From a phage, in the sequence record PZ247578.1: DNA of 37,944 nt, one strand, 5' to 3'. Position 1 is the stretch's first letter. Every line of letters begins with the position of its first letter. Position numbers and translations under genes: made by a program. The notes under the pieces were generated by a model. That model saw nothing but the letters and a program-made list of their open reading frames with translations, was not told the DNA's origin and searched no databases. This document shows, one piece after another, positions 18,940 through 34,588 of this stretch.

Positions 18940-19824
18940 ATGTCTCAATCAGTTTATGCCGAGTTCGGCGTTAGCTCTAATGCAATCACTGGTTCCGTTG
19001 AGGACCTGAACGAACACCAGAAGTCTATGCTTGAACAGGACGTAGCTGTTCGTGATGGCGATGACGCTATTACCTTCAAGCAACTGGAAGCCGAAAACGA
19101 AGAGGCGACCGAAGAAGACGAGAACGTCGAAGAGACTGAGGGTGCTGAAGACAACGAGTCCGATGACGAAGAGTCTGAGACCGATGGTGAGCAGCCTGAG
19201 TTCATCGAACTAGGTGATGCACCGAAAGAGCTGACTGAAAGTGTCACCGCTCTGGATGAAAACGAAGCTGCATTTGACGACATGGTGTCTTCTGCTGTAG
19301 AAGCTGGCAAGGTCACTGCTGATGAAATTATCGCTATCAAGGCTGAATACGCCAAGGACGGTAAGCTGTCTGACGCATCCTACGCTAAGTTGCAGGAAGC
19401 AGGTTACACCAAGCGTTTCGTAGATTCGTTTGTCCGTGGCCAGGAAGCTCTTGCTGAACAGTATGCTGCTGGTGTGGTTCGCTACGCTGGTGGTGCTGAA
19501 CAGTTTAATCGCATCCTGTCACACCTTGAGTCCAACGACCCGTCAACTCGTGAAGCACTGGAAGCTGCTATCATTCGTAAGGACATTGCTACTACCAAAG
19601 CTCTGCTGAATCTGGCTGGCAAGACTCTGGGTAAAGCTGTGGGTGTTAAACCTCAGCGTACCATCACCACTCAGGCTAAACCTGTGGTCGCACCTAAGGC
19701 TCCTCAGACCGAAGCATTCAGCTCCAAGGCTGACATGATTAAGGCTATGAGTGACCCGCGATACCTGCGTGACGCTAAATACACGATGGAAGTTCGCGCT
19801 AAGGTAGCTGCCTCAAGCCTGTAG
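18940..19824 (+). CDS. Capsid assembly scaffolding protein (gp9 homolog), 294 aa
   Basis: Highly acidic, Glu/Asp-rich; directly upstream of the major capsid gene. Confidence 0.85.
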   Translation: MSQSVYAEFGVSSNAITGSVEDLNEHQKSMLEQDVAVRDGDDAITFKQLEAENEEATEEDENVEETEGAEDNESDDEESETDGEQPEFIELGDAPKELTESVTALDENEAAFDDMVSSAVEAGKVTADEIIAIKAEYAKDGKLSDASYAKLQEAGYTKRFVDSFVRGQEALAEQYAAGVVRYAGGAEQFNRILSHLESNDPSTREALEAAIIRKDIATTKALLNLAGKTLGKAVGVKPQRTITTQAKPVVAPKAPQTEAFSSKADMIKAMSDPRYLRDAKYTMEVRAKVAASSL

Positions 19825-19826
19825 GA

Positions 19827-19849
19827 CTAAACTATCACTATAGGGAGAC
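19827..19849 (+). promoter_or_regulatory. Strong phage RNAP promoter (CTAAACTATCACTATAGGGAGACC), phi10-like
   Basis: Best match to the full consensus including GGGAGA; upstream of the capsid gene. Confidence 0.9.
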
Positions 19850-25614: not shown

Positions 25615-27897
25615 ATGGCTAGTAATATTGAATCAGCTCTGGCTAATCGGACTATGGGTCGTGGCAGAGCGCCTGGTAAAACTATCTCCGTCAACTATCA
25701 AGCAGCCAGCGTTCAGGCTCCGACTGGGGACTCCGGGCTGGCTCGTGCATTAACTAACTTCGTTGAGTCTGGGACAGGATTGTACAAGCAGTTCAAGGAC
25801 GATGAGAAGACCAGAGCTGACGAGCGGTCTAACGAAATTATCCGTAAGTTGACACCTCAGCAGAGACGTGAGGCTATCCAGAACGGTACATTGCTGTATC
25901 AGGATGACCCTTACGCTATGGAAGCACTTCGAGTCAAGACTGGTCGCAATGCTGCCTTTGCTGTAGACGACGAGATTAACGTTAAGATTCAGAACGGTGA
26001 GTTCCGTACACGTCAGGACATGGAAGAGTATCGCCACCAGCGACTTCAGGACGCCGCTAAGTCCTATGCTGAAGAGGCGGGTATTAACCCTACCGACGAG
26101 TTCTTCCAGCGTGGCTTCAACGATAACATCACGGACAGAAACATCGCTATCTATGGGTCTTTCAATAAGTATTTCAGCAAGCAGTCTGAAGAGACAGCAA
26201 TGTTGAACACCCGTATTGAGATGAACTCATTCCTGAACGATGGCGACCTTATGCGTTCACCTGAGTCTGGCAAGACCTTCATGGCCTACCTTCGGGATGG
26301 ACTAACGACTGCTGCTATCCCATCGGACCAGCGAGCGCGGGAGGTCATTGCCCAGACGGTCCGTGACGCAATCCAGAAGTCAGGCGGCTCAAACTTCCTA
26401 CAGCAAGTACGAGGCGAGCGAATCACCCTTAACGGCGTGGATGCTACAGTCGAAGAGATTGTAGGACCTGATGTCTTCAACGCTGCTATTGTTGAGGCAC
26501 AAGGAACTGAGTACAAGCTGGTGGCTAAGTATCAGGAAGACTTAGCGTTAGGCGTTCAGTCTGCGATTCTTCAGGATGACCCAACCATCGGTCTGGCCCA
26601 GATTCAGAAACTCAAGGAGCAGAACAACCTGCTTCAGCCGGGTGAAGAACTAACGCCTCAGCGTCAGATGCTTATTAATGCCGAAGCCAGCTTACTGGAA
26701 GCGGTAAAGCGTAAGTCTGCTGAACAGGCGAAGGAGAACACGAAGTTAATCCAGACCCAGAACAAGCAACTGGTCATTGACCAAGTGTATCAGCGACGTC
26801 TGGCTGGAGACAACGTGTCCACCAACTATGAGGACCTTCCGGTCTCTGAAGCCACAGGAGAGTTCAAGCGTTCAGACATGAACAACTATGCGTCTGCTAA
26901 GCTACAGCAGATTGACCAGATGGACATCCCTGAGGCTGCTAAGGACGCACAGAAGGTGGCATTGTTAAGGGCTGACACTAACAATGGTCCGTTCCGTAAT
27001 GCCTTCCAGACGCTGACTAAGGACGCTGCTGGTGAGTGGCAAGCTGCGGTCATCCGTGGGCAGTACGACCCAGACAAGATGCAACGCTTCGAATCTCTTC
27101 GTCGTGCCTACACTCAGGACCCTTCAAGTTTTGCTGCTCTGTATCCTGACCAAGCTCAGTTGTTCTCTACGTTCGACCAGATGGACAAGATGGGTCTGGA
27201 CCCTCAGACGATGATTGAAGCTGATAAGCAAGCTGCAAGTCAAAGCCGTGAGATGCGCATGGAGTCAGACAAGGCGTGGCAGGAGTTGAAGAATGACTCT
27301 CGGAATAAGGACCTTTCGCGTCTTCCTACGTCTCTGGACGCAAGTGCTCGTAAGGTCTGGGACTCATGGTACTATCGTACAGGTAACGCTGACGCTGCAA
27401 CTCAGCAGACTCAACGCTGGCTGAATGAGAACACCGTAACGTTCCAGTCTGAAGGTTCTGACGGTAAGTCCATCGGCATGGTGTCAAAGCACCAGCTTAT
27501 GGTCGGGGATAGCCCAGAGTCGTGGCAGGTTGGTCGAGACATTATCGACACCGCTCGTAAGCAGCTCATTAAGGCCAACCCTTGGGTAGTGAACTCTCAG
27601 TTGTCCGTTGTTGAACAGAACGGCTCTATCTTCCTCCAAGACGCTACAGGGACTATTCGTATTCGCTACGATAAAGAACTTGTAGGTAAACTCTACCGCG
27701 AACAACAGCAGAAGGCACAAGATGCCGCATACGCTCAGGCAGAACGTGACGCTAACAAGCGAGCGCGTATCGTCGGGACTAAAGCTGCTGGTGACAAACG
27801 TCGAGCTGACCGAGAGGCCAACATCGAGAAGCGCGGTGGGATGTACAATGACGTCTCACTGGAGGGTATCGCAAACGTACTAATTGGTAAGGAGTAA
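25615..27897 (+). CDS. Internal virion protein C (gp15 homolog), 760 aa
   Basis: Size and position; SD AAGAGGAGG; Gln/Ala-rich predicted helical protein. Confidence 0.85.
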   Translation: MASNIESALANRTMGRGRAPGKTISVNYQAASVQAPTGDSGLARALTNFVESGTGLYKQFKDDEKTRADERSNEIIRKLTPQQRREAIQNGTLLYQDDPYAMEALRVKTGRNAAFAVDDEINVKIQNGEFRTRQDMEEYRHQRLQDAAKSYAEEAGINPTDEFFQRGFNDNITDRNIAIYGSFNKYFSKQSEETAMLNTRIEMNSFLNDGDLMRSPESGKTFMAYLRDGLTTAAIPSDQRAREVIAQTVRDAIQKSGGSNFLQQVRGERITLNGVDATVEEIVGPDVFNAAIVEAQGTEYKLVAKYQEDLALGVQSAILQDDPTIGLAQIQKLKEQNNLLQPGEELTPQRQMLINAEASLLEAVKRKSAEQAKENTKLIQTQNKQLVIDQVYQRRLAGDNVSTNYEDLPVSEATGEFKRSDMNNYASAKLQQIDQMDIPEAAKDAQKVALLRADTNNGPFRNAFQTLTKDAAGEWQAAVIRGQYDPDKMQRFESLRRAYTQDPSSFAALYPDQAQLFSTFDQMDKMGLDPQTMIEADKQAASQSREMRMESDKAWQELKNDSRNKDLSRLPTSLDASARKVWDSWYYRTGNADAATQQTQRWLNENTVTFQSEGSDGKSIGMVSKHQLMVGDSPESWQVGRDIIDTARKQLIKANPWVVNSQLSVVEQNGSIFLQDATGTIRIRYDKELVGKLYREQQQKAQDAAYAQAERDANKRARIVGTKAAGDKRRADREANIEKRGGMYNDVSLEGIANVLIGKE

Positions 27898-27901
27898 CAT
27901 A

Positions 27902-30900
27902 ATGGCGACTCGTGGTATTCGCAATAACAATCCGGGTAACATCCGGGTAGGTAAGGACCAATGGGAAGGAATGACTGGAGATGATGGCGCATTCGTCACC
28001 TTCGATAGTCCAGAGTCTGGCGTCCGAGCTTTAGGTAAAAACCTGCTGTCCTACGGTCGCCAAGGCTATGACTCCATCGAGAAGATTATCAACCGATGGG
28101 CACCTCCTAACGAGAACGACACTAAGGCTTATATCGACTCAGTGGTGGCTGCAACTGGTATTCCAGCTACACAGAGTCTAGACCTATCGGACCCTGACAC
28201 CCTGTCTTCTCTGGCACAAGCTATCAGCTTCCATGAGACAGGCTCACGGTACGACCCTGAAGTCTATCAGAAGGGAGTCGCACGGGCACTCAACGGCATT
28301 AGCCCAAAGACTCCACCAGTAAGCGCTAACGTATTTGACGCACTCACGGAAGGACTCAAGGCTAAACCTAAAGTAGCTCTTGGCGAGAACCTTCCGACCG
28401 CTGCTGGTCTGAATATTGAGGGTCAAGCACCTGAAGCTCCCAACGAATCGTTCGGTGAGATGTTCTATAAGGCTACTGGAGAGACCATGCGGGAACTAGA
28501 GGACCGCTCTACGTGGTTCGGTTTCGGTGCTGCTACAGAAGCTGAAGTGAAGAACTCTATGGTCGGCGTGGCTATCCGCGCTGGTAAGACCGAGGACTCA
28601 CTTGATGTCATTGGCGATGTGTTCAACCCTACCCGCTGGAACAACCATAAGTGGACTCGTGAAGAGTTGGACCAGATTCGTAACGCTGGGGTTCTGCCTC
28701 AGTATTACGGAGTCATTACTGGTGGTTCTCCTCAGAACCTGACCGAGCTTATTAACTTGGCGCTTGAGAACCAGAAGTTGGACCAAGAGAAGGCCAAGGC
28801 TGGGACTGGTGCTCAGCTAGCAGCTGGTGTTATTGGTGCTGGTGTAGACCCTCTGACATACGTTCCTATCGCTGGACAGGTTGGCAAAGGTGCGAAGCTG
28901 GTCAACAAGATGTTCACCGTGTCTGCTCAATCTGGAGCACTGGCTGGTGTGTCCGAGATGGCCCGTACCTCAGTGGCTGGTGGCGATGCTCATGTGGCTG
29001 AAGCTATCCTTGGTGGTGCTCTCTTCGGAGGTGGTATGACTGCTATCGCTGATGGGCTAGGCAGAGCCTTAGGCCGCAACACTAACGAGTTCGCTGGTCC
29101 AGCCACACGTCTGGAAGCTCGTGAGACAGCCCGTAACGTTGATGGTCAGGACCTGTCTCGTCTCCCTATTCAGGAAGGTGAGCCGACCTTTAGTCATCAA
29201 GGCGTTAAGTTCGCTGACGTTCCGAATGAGCCGGGTAGTGTACGACTTGAAGATGGTTCAATCCTGATTGGTGAGAACCCTCTGAACCCTAAGACACGTC
29301 AAGTCTTTGACGAAGTGATTGAGCCTGAACGTGCCGCTGCTGGTGTGAACCTTGGGGGACTTACCGAGATTGGCCTGAAGCTGCTTCGGTCTGAGAACCC
29401 TGAGATTCGTGGAGTCGCTGCTGACTTAGTGCGTTCACCAACCGGTATGCAGTCAGGGGCCTCAGGTAAAATCGGGACCACTGCGTCAGACGTATTCGAG
29501 AGACTTCGTGCTGTGGACCATCGGTTCTACAACGACATCGACGACGCGGTTACTGAGGCGCTCAAGGACCCATACTTCCAGACAGCATTCTGGCGAGACT
29601 CTGGCGCATTCCGTCAGGACATCTACCAGCGTGTGTCTATGGCTATTGAAGACGGAAGTGGGAACCTGAAGGCTGAACTGACTCCGGGAGAACTGAAAGT
29701 CTATGACCTGCTGAAGAACCAGTTTGATGCCAAGCGTGAGATGATGGAGAACCCGGCGATGTTTGGTCGTCCAGACGCTCAGTCTATCTTTCCGGGTAGC
29801 CGCTTCAATGGAACCTACGTCCCTCATGTGTATAGCAAACAGATGAAGGAGCTGTACATCAAGGAGCTTGGGAGTCCAGAGGCGTTGCAGGAGGCCATCA
29901 AGAAGTCATGGTTGACCAGCTATGCGTCTCGACCTGAGGTCAAGAAACGTGTGGACGAGGCACTCTTAGAGGCTGACCCTACGTTGACTCCAGAAGGACT
30001 TGCGGCTGCGGTCGATAAGTACGCCAACGATAAGGCTTATGGTATCTCTCACACCGAGCAGTTCGAGCGTTCATCCGTAATGGAGGAGAACATCAACGGG
30101 CTGGTGGGTCTGGAGAACAACAGCTTCCTTGAGTCTCGTAACCTGTTCGATAGCGATATGTCAATCGTTCTTCCTAACGGTCAGACCTTCAGTGTCAACA
30201 ACCTGCGTGAGTGGGACATGGACAAGATTGTCCCGGCCTACAACCGTCGAGTTAATGGTGATATTGCTATCATGGCTGGTACAGGCAAGACCACGAAGGA
30301 AATGAAGGACTTAGTTGAGACCATGATGAACAAGGCTGGCGATGACGGAAAGTTGAAAGGTGAAGTATCTACCTTACGTGACACCCTGAAGATTCTCACT
30401 GGTCGTGCTCGACGTGATGGTGCTGATGATGCGGCCTTCGCTACCGTGATGCGCACGATGACAGACCTATCGTTCTTCGCTAAGAGTGCCTACATGGGTG
30501 TTCAGAACTTAACGGAGATTGGTGGTATGCTAGCTCGTGGTAACGTCCGTGCAATGCTGCATGGAGTCCCGATGTTCCGTGACCTAGCCTTCCGTAACAA
30601 GAAGGTCGGGGCCTCAGAGATTAAGGACCTGCATAATGTTCTCTTCGGTAAGGAACTTGATGACTCAATACGTCCGTCTAAACAGGATGTCATTGACCGT
30701 CTGCGGTCTTACAGTGACCTCGGTCGTGGTACAGCTACAGCTCTGGGGACTGCCAAGTATTACACTGGTGAACTTGCTGTCCGCTCCCCGTTCACTAAAG
30801 TCCTCAACGGTACGACCAACTACCTGTTAGATGCTGGACGTCAGGGCTTCCTGTCTGACATCGTGGAGCATAGCCTGACTGGTAGTAAGCGTAAGTTCGA

Positions 30901-31789
30901 TGACCGCTGGCTGAAGACCGCTGGTATCTCTGACGAGCAGTGGAAGGGCATTAAGTCCCTAATCCGTGAGTCAGTGACTCGTGGTCCAGACGGGAAGTAC
31001 ACCATCAAGGATAAGAAGGCGTTCAGTCAGGACCCAAGGGCTATGGACCTATGGCGTATGGGTGACACCATCGCTGACGAGACGTTACTCCGGCCTCATA
31101 AGCTGTCAAACATGGACTCCAAGGCTTATGGTCCTCTCGCTAAGACTGTCCTTCAGTTTAAGAACTTCGTCATCAAGTCAATCAATGGTCGAACCATGCG
31201 AACATTCTATAACGCCACGAAGAACAACCGAGCGATGGACGCTGCACTGTCTACTGTGATGTCTATGGGTCTGGCTGGTATCTACTACATGGCTCAGGCG
31301 CACGTCAAGGCTTACGCTATGCAGGACGGTCGAGACCGAGATTATCTCAAGCAAGCTCTGGACCCAACGATGATTGGCTATGCGGCCCTGTCCCGTAGTT
31401 CACATCTTGGTGGACCCCTTGGGGTAGCTAACATTCTAGGTGGCATCGCTGGGTATGAGGACACTAAGATGCTCCGTTCGTCTATCCTCCCGCGTTCACC
31501 TACAGAGAAACCCGAACGTGCCATCTCATATGGTGCGGCTACAAGTGACCCTGTGATGAATGTCGTTGGTAACTTCTTGGAGCAGGTCCCGGCTTTCGGC
31601 TATATTGCTAACGTTGGCGCTTCGGCATACAACTTGGCTGGCTACCTCAAGGCTGATACTCGTGTCAACGAGCGTGACTACATGACCGGGATGTATAATA
31701 CGTTCCGTGAACTTGTACCGAATGACCCGATTACCCAGAAGTTGCTGCTTGGAACGTTTGAGGAGCAGGGCATCCACATCAAGGACTAA
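27902..31789 (+). CDS. Internal virion protein D (gp16 homolog), about 1295 aa; the N-terminal roughly 130 aa differ from the T7 transglycosylase domain
   Basis: From about residue 200 onward collinear with recalled T7 gp16 (STWFGF, PTRWN..WT.EELD.IR, VVTGGSP, RLEARETARN, RSPTGMQSGASGK, ENNSFLE.RNLFDSD); N-terminus begins MATRGIRNNNPGNIR. Confidence 0.9.
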   Translation: MATRGIRNNNPGNIRVGKDQWEGMTGDDGAFVTFDSPESGVRALGKNLLSYGRQGYDSIEKIINRWAPPNENDTKAYIDSVVAATGIPATQSLDLSDPDTLSSLAQAISFHETGSRYDPEVYQKGVARALNGISPKTPPVSANVFDALTEGLKAKPKVALGENLPTAAGLNIEGQAPEAPNESFGEMFYKATGETMRELEDRSTWFGFGAATEAEVKNSMVGVAIRAGKTEDSLDVIGDVFNPTRWNNHKWTREELDQIRNAGVLPQYYGVITGGSPQNLTELINLALENQKLDQEKAKAGTGAQLAAGVIGAGVDPLTYVPIAGQVGKGAKLVNKMFTVSAQSGALAGVSEMARTSVAGGDAHVAEAILGGALFGGGMTAIADGLGRALGRNTNEFAGPATRLEARETARNVDGQDLSRLPIQEGEPTFSHQGVKFADVPNEPGSVRLEDGSILIGENPLNPKTRQVFDEVIEPERAAAGVNLGGLTEIGLKLLRSENPEIRGVAADLVRSPTGMQSGASGKIGTTASDVFERLRAVDHRFYNDIDDAVTEALKDPYFQTAFWRDSGAFRQDIYQRVSMAIEDGSGNLKAELTPGELKVYDLLKNQFDAKREMMENPAMFGRPDAQSIFPGSRFNGTYVPHVYSKQMKELYIKELGSPEALQEAIKKSWLTSYASRPEVKKRVDEALLEADPTLTPEGLAAAVDKYANDKAYGISHTEQFERSSVMEENINGLVGLENNSFLESRNLFDSDMSIVLPNGQTFSVNNLREWDMDKIVPAYNRRVNGDIAIMAGTGKTTKEMKDLVETMMNKAGDDGKLKGEVSTLRDTLKILTGRARRDGADDAAFATVMRTMTDLSFFAKSAYMGVQNLTEIGGMLARGNVRAMLHGVPMFRDLAFRNKKVGASEIKDLHNVLFGKELDDSIRPSKQDVIDRLRSYSDLGRGTATALGTAKYYTGELAVRSPFTKVLNGTTNYLLDAGRQGFLSDIVEHSLTGSKRKFDDRWLKTAGISDEQWKGIKSLIRESVTRGPDGKYTIKDKKAFSQDPRAMDLWRMGDTIADETLLRPHKLSNMDSKAYGPLAKTVLQFKNFVIKSINGRTMRTFYNATKNNRAMDAALSTVMSMGLAGIYYMAQAHVKAYAMQDGRDRDYLKQALDPTMIGYAALSRSSHLGGPLGVANILGGIAGYEDTKMLRSSILPRSPTEKPERAISYGAATSDPVMNVVGNFLEQVPAFGYIANVGASAYNLAGYLKADTRVNERDYMTGMYNTFRELVPNDPITQKLLLGTFEEQGIHIKD

Positions 31790-31808
31790 ACTATCACTAT
31801 AGGAAACT
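31786..31808 (+). promoter_or_regulatory. Phage RNAP promoter (CTAAACTATCACTATAGGAAACT), phi17-like
   Basis: Consensus core. Confidence 0.85.
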
Positions 31809-31853
31809 GGAGGCGCTACCATAGGTCTCCGTTTAAATCACAAAGGAGGCATA

Positions 31854-34040
31854 ATGTCCACGATTACACAATTCCCTTCAGGAAACACTCAGTACAGGAT
31901 AGAGTTCGATTACCTAGCCAGAACGTTTGTTGTTGTTACGCTGGTGAATAGCTCTAACCCTACCCTGAACAGTGTACTGGAAGTTGGTCGAGATTACCGA
32001 TTCCTTAACCCAACGATGATTGAGATGTTGGTTGACCAATCAGGTTTCGACATCGTTCGTATTCACCGTCAGACTGGAACTGACTTAGTGGTAGACTTCA
32101 GGAATGGCTCAGTGTTGACAGCTAGTGACCTGACCAATTCAGAGCTTCAGGCTATCCATATTGCAGAAGAAGGTCGAGACCAAACGGTTGACTTAGCGAA
32201 GGAATATGCCGATGCTGCTGGTAGCTCTGCTGGCAACGCTAAGGATAGCGAGGACGAAGCACGACGAATCGCTGAGAGTATCAAGGCATCTGGTCGAATC
32301 GGCTATATTACCCGTCGCTCCTTCGAGAAAGGCTTCAACGTTACAACATGGAACGAGGTCCTGCTATGGGAAGAGGACGGTGAGTATTACCGCTGGGATG
32401 GTGCGCTTCCAAAGAACGTTCCTGCCGGCTCAACACCTGAAGCATCTGGTGGTGTTGGCATTGGTGCATGGGTTAGTGTTGGTGATGCTTCATTGCGCAG
32501 TGATTTGACCCTAAGCACTGGCGCACGGCGAGTTGGGACAACATCCGGCAGGACCGTACAGGCAGAGCTTGATATCCTCAAAATGGGGTACAAGACGCTT
32601 GATGACTTTGGTGCAAAAGGTGACGGAAGTACAGACGACACCGCTGCCATATTCAATGCCTTTTCGTGGGCCTCAACCAACGGACTACCACTTAGAGTTC
32701 CAAGCAAACCATATGTTTGGAATGGCGACGTTATTCCATACGATAATGTGACCCTCATTGGTGATAAGCGGCCCTATGCGGATTCAGGGTTAACTCGTCT
32801 TCTTGATGGTAGTATTATCGTAGGTACGCTCAGATTTAGTGGCAAAAACATACAAATCAGCAATATTGGAGTCGATCACGGTTCGTTCCGGTTCCCGTCG
32901 ACAGCTGGTGATGCCCTCATTGTATCAGCCCCTGAAAAATCAGGGCAGTATTGCCTTATAAGAAACTGTGTTGGACTAGGGCGAAATCCAACCGATGCAT
33001 TTCACGCTATTCTGTGTGAAGGTTATAAATATTCAATTATTGAAGATTGCATCGGCATACAGAATACATATAGCATCGCGCACAAAAGTGGTTATTCAAT
33101 CACGAATAATATAATATCCATAAACTCAAACACAGGTGTTATTGTTAAATCTGATAGTGCATTTGGTGATGCCAGTTTCTGTAATATTACCAATATTACC
33201 ATTGATGGAAATGAAAACTGTAATATTGGCTTGTGGGTTTTTGCGCAAGACGCTCAACTACAGAAGGTTAATGTATCTAATATTGTAGTATCTGGATGTA
33301 AATACGACATGGTGGTGCAGGCTGATGCTGGCGTCATCAATGAAATTAACATTAACAATCTGGCAAGCTCTGGGGCATCCATAGCGTCACTAGCACTGGT
33401 GGCTAATGCCGCCGATAAGATATACACCGTAAACATATCAAACATTTCAGCTGGCGAAGTTACAGGGCAAATTATTGATGCGCAGGTAGCTAATTTGCTG
33501 AATGTATCGAATGTTACTGGGCGAATTACCAGCTCATCGACGCACGTCAGTGACTCCATAAAGATAGGGGAATTAGTTGGCGCTTCAAATCTTGTTAATG
33601 TAATTCCCACTTTGAATTACAGTTTAACATCTCAGGCTGGAGTGACTTTTAATAACGCTTTTGAAAATAACAGCATCAGTAATGTTCGCGCTGCTATATA
33701 CGGAAGCGGAGCGCCGCGACCAGGGTATGCAACACAGGGCGCAAGCGGTGTCTCTGGAGTGCTTTCGGTAAGATATAGCCAGACAAACTCGTCATTCATA
33801 AAGCTAACTCTTCCTTCAGGAGCAGCTGAGATAGCTACCATACACACAACAGCCATCAATGGCTCGGTAATACCGGAAGGATATGTATTATGGATACAAA
33901 ACGCCACCTCCGGACAAAACCTAACGATAACTCCTTCTACTGCTGGTCATATCGTTACAACCGGGAATACTCCAAAGGTGTTGGCTGGCGGTGATAAAGT
34001 TGGCTTTATGTTTGATGGTAACACATGGATTCAGATGTAA
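31854..34040 (+). CDS. Tail fibre/tailspike (gp17 homolog): T7-like N-terminal adaptor domain fused to a pectate-lyase-fold beta-helix, probable polysaccharide depolymerase
   Basis: N-terminal approx. 150 aa resemble T7 gp17 (FDYLARTFVVVTL, LVVDFRNGSVL, AEEGRD); downstream LDDFGAKGDGSTDDTAAIFNAF is the pectate-lyase/tailspike signature; many N-x-[ST]/I-rich beta-helix-like repeats; C-terminal two-thirds is AT-rich. Confidence 0.85.
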   Translation: MSTITQFPSGNTQYRIEFDYLARTFVVVTLVNSSNPTLNSVLEVGRDYRFLNPTMIEMLVDQSGFDIVRIHRQTGTDLVVDFRNGSVLTASDLTNSELQAIHIAEEGRDQTVDLAKEYADAAGSSAGNAKDSEDEARRIAESIKASGRIGYITRRSFEKGFNVTTWNEVLLWEEDGEYYRWDGALPKNVPAGSTPEASGGVGIGAWVSVGDASLRSDLTLSTGARRVGTTSGRTVQAELDILKMGYKTLDDFGAKGDGSTDDTAAIFNAFSWASTNGLPLRVPSKPYVWNGDVIPYDNVTLIGDKRPYADSGLTRLLDGSIIVGTLRFSGKNIQISNIGVDHGSFRFPSTAGDALIVSAPEKSGQYCLIRNCVGLGRNPTDAFHAILCEGYKYSIIEDCIGIQNTYSIAHKSGYSITNNIISINSNTGVIVKSDSAFGDASFCNITNITIDGNENCNIGLWVFAQDAQLQKVNVSNIVVSGCKYDMVVQADAGVINEININNLASSGASIASLALVANAADKIYTVNISNISAGEVTGQIIDAQVANLLNVSNVTGRITSSSTHVSDSIKIGELVGASNLVNVIPTLNYSLTSQAGVTFNNAFENNSISNVRAAIYGSGAPRPGYATQGASGVSGVLSVRYSQTNSSFIKLTLPSGAAEIATIHTTAINGSVIPEGYVLWIQNATSGQNLTITPSTAGHIVTTGNTPKVLAGGDKVGFMFDGNTWIQM

Positions 34041-34133
34041 TCTCAGCCTGTGTAGGTAGAGGCTAACTACATGCTGACCAACGTATGGTAACAACTTTGG
34101 GTCACGGACGACCCGCTTTAAACTGGAGGTTTT

Positions 34134-34328
34134 ATGATTGAGTTAGACTTCAAGAATGAGGTCCTTAAAGCCTCTCCTATCGTCGGGACCGCTGCGGCTG
34201 ATGGTGCCAGTCGGTTCTTCTTCGGACTTACACTGAACGAATGGTTCTACGTTGCAGCTATCGCGTACACCGTTGTCCAGATTGGTGTGCTAGTCTACAA
34301 AACGATTAAAGGAGGCGGTAAAACATGA
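34134..34328 (+). CDS. Class II holin (gp17.5 homolog), 64 aa
   Basis: FFFGLTLNEWFYVAAIAYTVVQIG nearly identical to recalled T7 holin. Confidence 0.9.
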   Translation: MIELDFKNEVLKASPIVGTAAADGASRFFFGLTLNEWFYVAAIAYTVVQIGVLVYKTIKGGGKT

Positions 34329-34588
34329 CGCAGATGGACTTAGAGAAGTTCCTCTTAATGCTAGATACTGAACGTGCTCGACTCATGCTGCAAGACCTGC
34401 GGGATGACTCTAAGCGTTCTCCTCAGCTTTACAACGCCATTGAGAAGCTACTGGCTCGTCACAACTTTGTGTTAAGCAAGGTGTCTGTGGACGAGAAGAC
34501 GCTGGCTGATATGGAGGCCCTGAACGCAGAGTATGATAAGGTGCTTTCAGCGACTGAGGATAATGACACCGGGTATGGTGTTCAATAA
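34325..34588 (+). CDS. Terminase small subunit (gp18 homolog), 87 aa
   Basis: Position between holin and Rz as in T7; size matches T7 gp18 (89 aa); SD AAAGGAGG. Confidence 0.75.
   Translation: MTQMDLEKFLLMLDTERARLMLQDLRDDSKRSPQLYNAIEKLLARHNFVLSKVSVDEKTLADMEALNAEYDKVLSATEDNDTGYGVQ

Follow-up and report, generated by a model that had tools for sequence, protein, structure and literature searches.

The C-terminal part of a phage tailspike was suspected, from its base composition, to be a swapped depolymerase; the question raised by this locus is whether that part is truly of foreign origin, and which glycan it would act on. We analyzed the tailspike gene within the window, which is the whole 37,944-nt stretch of record PZ247578.1; all positions refer to it, and the features are listed in Table 1.

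Gene position and the tail anchor

The ORF given in the original prediction was recovered exactly, on the plus strand, starting at an ATG and 728 codons long. The gene is flanked by gp16 (27884–31789), an internal virion protein with a lysozyme domain (phrog_342), on one side and by a holin (phrog_920, 34134–34328), encoded on the late-gene strand, on the other side. The local order gp16 - gp17 - holin - small terminase, with gp16 and the gp17.5 holin as neighbors and a putative phage promoter of its own, is that of gene 17, and the flanks are 94–98% identical to Kayfunavirus genomes. The annotated homologs are named 'tail protein' or 'tail spike protein'. The phage is a T7-like, K1F-like podovirus of the genus Kayfunavirus, and this product is its only tailspike.

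The promoter-like element directly upstream matches another copy, located at 19823–19844 upstream of the capsid gene, with 100% identity; by analogy with T7-like genome organization, it probably functions as a promoter. Scanning of 31500–34400 gave nothing above shuffled expectation, either for sigma-70 promoters (2 sites, 4.5 expected) or for intrinsic terminators (3 sites, 2.2 expected). Small ORFs within the tailspike gene, read in a different frame or from the minus strand, were unsupported and were set aside.

Table 1. Features of the tailspike gene and its surroundings (positions in the window)
Feature	Position	Strand	Basis
Phage-RNA-polymerase promoter-like element, directly 5' of the tailspike gene	31782..31803	+	12-copy direct-repeat family, core CTAAACTATCACTATAGG
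Tailspike gene (gene 17 position), 728 aa	31854..34040	+	ORF, ATG start
T7 gp17-type N-terminal tail-adaptor domain, aa 10-115	31881..32198	+	Pfam PF03906 (Phage_T7_tail)
Tail_spike_N (TSP1/gp66-type) domain, aa 152-211	32307..32486	+	Pfam PF18668, E = 4.6e-21
Left crossover interval, holding block GCATGGGTTAGTGTTGGTGATGC (AWVSVGDA), conserved across genera	32466..32498	+	Alignment A2
Horizontally exchanged receptor-binding cassette, aa 216-728 + stop codon	32499..34040	+	Homology breakpoints, foreign codon usage
Right-handed parallel beta-helix domain (predicted), aa ~246-616, incl. N-cap motif GAKGDGSTDDTAAI	32589..33701	+	
Candidate active-site stretch: D341 (GVDHG), H384 + E389 (FHAILCEGY), K411, K432 + D434 (KSD)	32874..33155	+	
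Core with the lowest GC in the window (0.39)	32900..33400	+	300-nt minimum 0.33 at 33011
C-terminal beta-sandwich domain, aa 638-725	33765..34028	+	Pfam PF25692 (Phage_depo_C)
Right cassette junction, just 3' of the stop codon	34041..34054	+	Ends of homology

The tailspike is connected to the tail through a two-domain anchor. The adaptor domain matches its Pfam family with E = 1e-15 (58.2 bits, cut-off 25.2), and the N-terminus aligns with the T7 gp17 N-terminal chains 7boz, 8dsp and 8e4g. Tail_spike_N forms the end part of the genus-conserved anchor; it was also found in ST1749, PSK1 and LM33_P1, and is present in siphovirus carriers of the cassette as well, Bas82 among them. A likeness to the gp17 adaptor had been expected for the N-terminal ~150 residues; the T7-like domain is indeed there, but the conserved anchor comprises two domains and extends to residue ~215. 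Residues 1–267 are nearly identical to the solved Kayfunavirus-type tailspike 9vvr_A (E = 5e-134), an entry with 18 chains, which suggests six homotrimeric tailspikes per tail.

Junctions and composition of the cassette

Compared to four Kayfunavirus genomes, the homology breaks sharply at 32488–32506 and again at 34029–34049; between ~32499 and ~34042 no homology to ST1749, PSK1, CLB_P1 or LM33_P1 could be detected. The window is 96.3% identical to ST1749 over 94.7% coverage, and the module is the biggest gap, 1544 nt in size (the others are 132 and 225 nt). For some 190 phage records, the match is confined to the first ~645 nt of the gene. Upstream of the left crossover the window follows ST1749, whereas downstream it follows Bas105, Bas82 and the Kagunavirus-like contig L010. 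In alignment A2, which covers seven phages including Bas82, 19 of the 23 positions of the left block are invariant, with one perfect 11-nt run, GTTGGTGATGC. At the right end, homology to Bas82 stops at 34052 and that to L010 at 34054, while the Kayfunavirus backbone resumes at 34029–34049; a short CAG(C/T)(C/T)TGTG is shared at this boundary.

The nucleotide identity of the cassette is 95.6% to L010, 90.5% to Bas105 and 90.2% to Bas82, and the same module is located behind different anchors in Bas82, L010, L011 and the P22-type P0004. The module tree conflicts with taxonomy (window–L010 0.956, Bas105–Bas82 0.961, window–Bas105 0.905). Since the breakpoints are sharp and the tree is incongruent, we rejected the reading that Kayfunavirus inherited the module vertically. 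The proposed module swap is directly demonstrated by the breakpoints against four other Kayfunavirus genomes and by the unrelated siphovirus anchors. That it was recent holds in a relative sense only: at the DNA level, the module and the nearest relative known for it are 4.4% apart, much like the backbone and ST1749 (3.7%).

The composition of the module was analyzed at several scales. With 300-nt windows, GC averages 0.499 across the genome (sd 0.034) and is lowest within the tailspike gene; the global minima of 600-, 1000- and 1290-nt windows are also inside its C-terminal part. The two 60-mers sampled previously have the reported GC, 0.333 at 33001 and 0.483 at 32101. GC of the 1542-nt module is 0.436; windows of this size taken from outside the gene have 0.504 ± 0.017 (z = -4.0). 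The GC3 of the module is 0.380, whereas the 22 remaining genes with 150 aa or more have 0.546 ± 0.038 and never fall below 0.485. Given its amino acids, the module should have a GC of 0.491 with the codon usage of the window; the observed value is 0.437 (z = -7.5), very similar to the 0.432 expected with the codon usage of the siphovirus Bas82 (z = +0.7). The codon log-likelihood ratio per codon is -0.087 for the module and +0.054 to +0.258 for the same 22 genes, making it the only one that prefers Bas82 usage. The foreign composition first noticed by eye therefore holds on sliding-window GC and on codon usage, even after amino-acid conditioning. GC does begin to drop near 32750, where the AT-rich part had been thought to start, but the recombination junction at 32466–32498 is located ~250 nt further upstream.

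May the AT-richness be due to the Ile/Asn/Ser/Lys-rich composition that beta-helix tailspikes require, rather than to foreign origin? Residues 385–485 contain 15.8% Ile, 11.9% Asn and 10.9% Ser, compared to 5.0% Ile and 4.4% Asn in the other genes. For the deepest dip (residues 401–500) the window's own codon usage predicts a GC of 0.439, the observed one being 0.357, so that ~40% of this dip is amino-acid composition. The dip remains in Bas82 (minimum 0.343), in which the backbone GC matches the module average, and three of the four unrelated Kayfunavirus modules are likewise below backbone GC (0.443–0.466). All these observations favor a compositional effect. However, the conditioned module is still 7.5 sd too AT-rich for the window, its GC3 is low, and the breakpoints prove the exchange independently of composition. 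As the complete explanation, composition is largely refuted by the synonymous-codon test, and we regard it as improbable.

All close carriers have a module GC of ~0.44, on backbones of 0.43 as well as of 0.53 GC, and the low-GC core is also the part best conserved among carriers (0.94–0.98 nucleotide identity at 32979–33278). In Bas82 the GC of module and backbone is equal (0.438 and 0.434), so the module is not compositionally foreign there. Nonanavirus was nevertheless set aside as the direct donor, the closest relative being in L010; because the backbone of L010 is 50.6% GC, the immediate donor need not be low in GC. An ultimate low-GC origin of the cassette is suggested, and transfer probably ran into the Kayfunavirus backbone.

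Fold, candidate active site and probable substrate

The quoted pectate-lyase-fold signature, TLDDFGAKGDGSTDDTAAIFNAF, is located at residues 248–270, and is supported by a match to PF12708 (Pect-lyase_RHGA_epim) at residues 250–438 (E = 5.5e-11, 43.1 bits, cut-off 27). In profile alignment the N-cap GDGxTDDT motif matches many beta-helix enzymes. The AlphaFold2 model, a monomer built from an 11-sequence alignment, confirmed the anticipated fold as a prediction: the receptor-binding domain in the cassette forms a right-handed parallel beta-helix, and the C-terminal domain is separate and all-beta. The latter matches Phage_depo_C with E = 6.6e-6 (26.9 bits, cut-off 25). No Peptidase_S74 chaperone (PF13884) was found in the tailspike at E values up to 1, in the same search that detected the ST1749 and PSK1 copies.

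Residues Asp341, His384, Glu389, Lys411, Lys432 and Asp434 are invariant or at least 90% conserved among 46 family members of 24–94% identity. The ~22–24-residue spacing of these polar residues suggests a stack along one side of consecutive coils, and a catalytic role appears plausible from their conservation. When the full protein and the family profile were searched against PDB chains, only the anchor, Tail_spike_N and the N-cap motif were matched, so no characterized active site can be transferred; the family comprises 52 clusters at E ≤ 1e-30, and for its core this search found no sequence link to any solved enzyme. The 'pectate-lyase' label is the name of a fold, not of a chemistry.

The substrate is approached through the relatives. 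Bas105 and Bas82 infect E. coli K-12 solely with the O16 O-antigen restored (PMC11990801). Over 100% of its 513 residues, the module is 90% identical to those of Bas105 and Bas82, 54% to those of Bas106, Huey, Dewey and Louie, and 33% to those of Bas70-73 and Bas77-80; it is thus homologous in full length to tailspikes of O16-requiring phages. The O16 dependence of BASEL phages with homologous receptor-binding domains was established with intact phages rather than with the module alone (PMC11990801, PMC10408124). The O-antigen and host-range reading of the original prediction agrees with the published O16 need of the two phages with 90% identical modules, and by analogy with them O16 O-antigen is the probable substrate of the cassette. 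The O16 backbone is Galf-Glc-Rha-GlcNAc and contains no uronic acid (PMC11218652). If O16 is the substrate, lyase chemistry is ruled out by this composition, and we infer that the enzyme is a hydrolase; membership of the polysaccharide lyases, which act by beta-elimination at uronic acid, is unlikely. As an O16 cross-check through the serotypes of lysogens, we searched 5,426 complete E. coli genomes with the module (distant mode) and complete E. coli genomes with its P22-type version, the Bas106 module (near mode); both searches gave zero matches.

Would the module target some other glycan (colanic acid, a capsule, or a non-O16 or modified O16 O-antigen), so that the specificity of Bas105 and Bas82 is not transferable? 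Residues 320–687 match phrog_8280, 'tail spike protein with colanic acid degradation activity' (E = 2e-30), and the Bas106 annotation bears the same label. That label, however, is an automatic putative name; the carriers at 33–90% identity are all strictly O16-dependent on K-12, and K-12 without O16 can still produce colanic acid. The nearest backbone relatives were isolated on Salmonella Typhi, and L010, with the closest module, is metagenome-derived and without known host; on the other hand, the full-length phage matches are all E. coli phages. The module diverges by 10% from those of Bas105 and Bas82 at the amino-acid level, 33429–33728 being more divergent (0.81–0.83 nucleotide identity). 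Many of the 51 differing residues (of 513) are within residues 526–625, and such clustering makes a shifted specificity possible; the conserved polar residues are intact. Altogether, we consider a different target rather unlikely. Even less probable is a non-catalytic glycan-binding adhesin, or an enzyme that modifies the glycan without cleavage. The six residues above are kept down to ~25% identity in the 46 relatives, typical of an active-site groove and not of a specificity-variable binding surface; tailspikes of like fold and role are mostly endoglycosidases (Det7, 9NA, HK620 and Sf6 are among the matches); and epimerase chemistry requires uronate, which O16 does not contain.

The architecture, fold, junctions, composition and phage distribution are demonstrated here. 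We find it quite probable that the tailspike consists of the genus-conserved anchor and a horizontally acquired O16-type beta-helix cassette on a Kayfunavirus backbone, the cassette being probably hydrolytic and assigned to O16 by homology. The adaptor and Tail_spike_N (residues 1–215) would attach the trimer to the tail. The cassette (residues 216–728) is a self-contained receptor-binding unit, a beta-helix with its N-cap followed by the small beta-sandwich, brought in by recombination. The left crossover is located in the short block at the Tail_spike_N end, conserved even in unrelated siphoviruses, and the right one just beyond the stop codon. The AT-rich codon usage fits a phage lineage of ~43% GC, such as Nonanavirus, and is not adjusted to the 50% GC backbone. 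Judged by its homology with the tailspikes of phages that depend on O16, the cassette most likely binds and hydrolytically cleaves the E. coli O16 O-antigen; the virion could thereby advance through the O-antigen layer to the outer membrane, and the cassette would decide which hosts are infectable. More tentatively, the cassette might represent a biochemically uncharacterized glycoside-hydrolase family that cuts an O16 linkage via the conserved groove, with the variant in the window, given its 10% divergence centered on residues 526–625, possibly reading a modified or related O-antigen; it would then be a natural specificity variant, on a backbone known otherwise from Salmonella Typhi phages.

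Significance and comparison with known tailspikes

The gene is a clean natural case of host-range reprogramming via cassette exchange: a module otherwise found in siphoviruses and podoviruses of E. coli that depend on O16 is combined with a backbone that shares 96% identity with phages isolated on Salmonella Typhi. The two junctions and the conserved linker block offer usable splice points for the engineering of T7-like tailspike swaps, and the codon-usage test separates amino-acid-driven from origin-driven AT-richness in tailspike modules. The phenomenon, the module family and the junction motifs were known earlier; the tailspike is a clear but ordinary example, and its worth is therefore in confirmation and practical use, not in new concepts.

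Among known systems, Bas105_0052 of Escherichia phage ElsieAttenhofer, an O16-dependent Kayfunavirus (PQ850601; PLoS Biol 2025, PMC11990801), is among the closest. It shares the 728-residue length and the genomic position, and like the window's tailspike it contains a two-domain anchor, a beta-helix module and a C-terminal domain; the identity is 91.8% at the nucleotide level over the whole gene and 90% at the amino-acid level in the module. However, the Bas105 backbone is only ~92% identical to the window, whereas ST1749-type phages are 96–98% identical. Since the module is nearer to that of the siphovirus contig than to that of Bas105, the two podoviruses probably acquired their modules separately. 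Bas82_0055, the tail fiber protein of Nonanavirus KarinMuster, and the tailspike of the Kagunavirus-like contig (ENA k141_13751, P0001) share the cassette from the Tail_spike_N end to past the stop codon, at 89–95% nucleotide identity and with equal Pfam domains there; both are from siphoviruses, and their N-terminal anchors are unrelated to that of the window.

The tailspike endoglycosidases of P22, Det7, 9NA, HK620 and Sf6 are also of beta-helix fold, but the beta-helix of the window's tailspike has no detectable sequence similarity to the solved proteins; their substrates differ and their catalytic residues are not transferable. AlgE4 mannuronan C-5 epimerase (A-module) and the GH28 and GH110 beta-helix enzymes, at 13–17% identity, resemble the module in fold only; they are non-phage enzymes, act on uronate or other substrates, and are outside any trimeric tailspike context. 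The opposite relation is found in the K1F gp17 endosialidase and in the tailspikes of ST1749, PSK1, LM33_P1 and CLB_P1, whose anchors are 94–98% identical up to residue ~215. They share gene position, flanks and break point with the window, but their C-terminal modules are unrelated. ST1749 and PSK1 possess a Peptidase_S74 intramolecular chaperone, whereas the C-terminus of the window's tailspike is the Phage_depo_C beta-sandwich. In CLB_P1 the anchor and the receptor-binding domain are encoded by two genes, gp17 and gp17.1 (PMC10408124); in the window, one gene encodes both.

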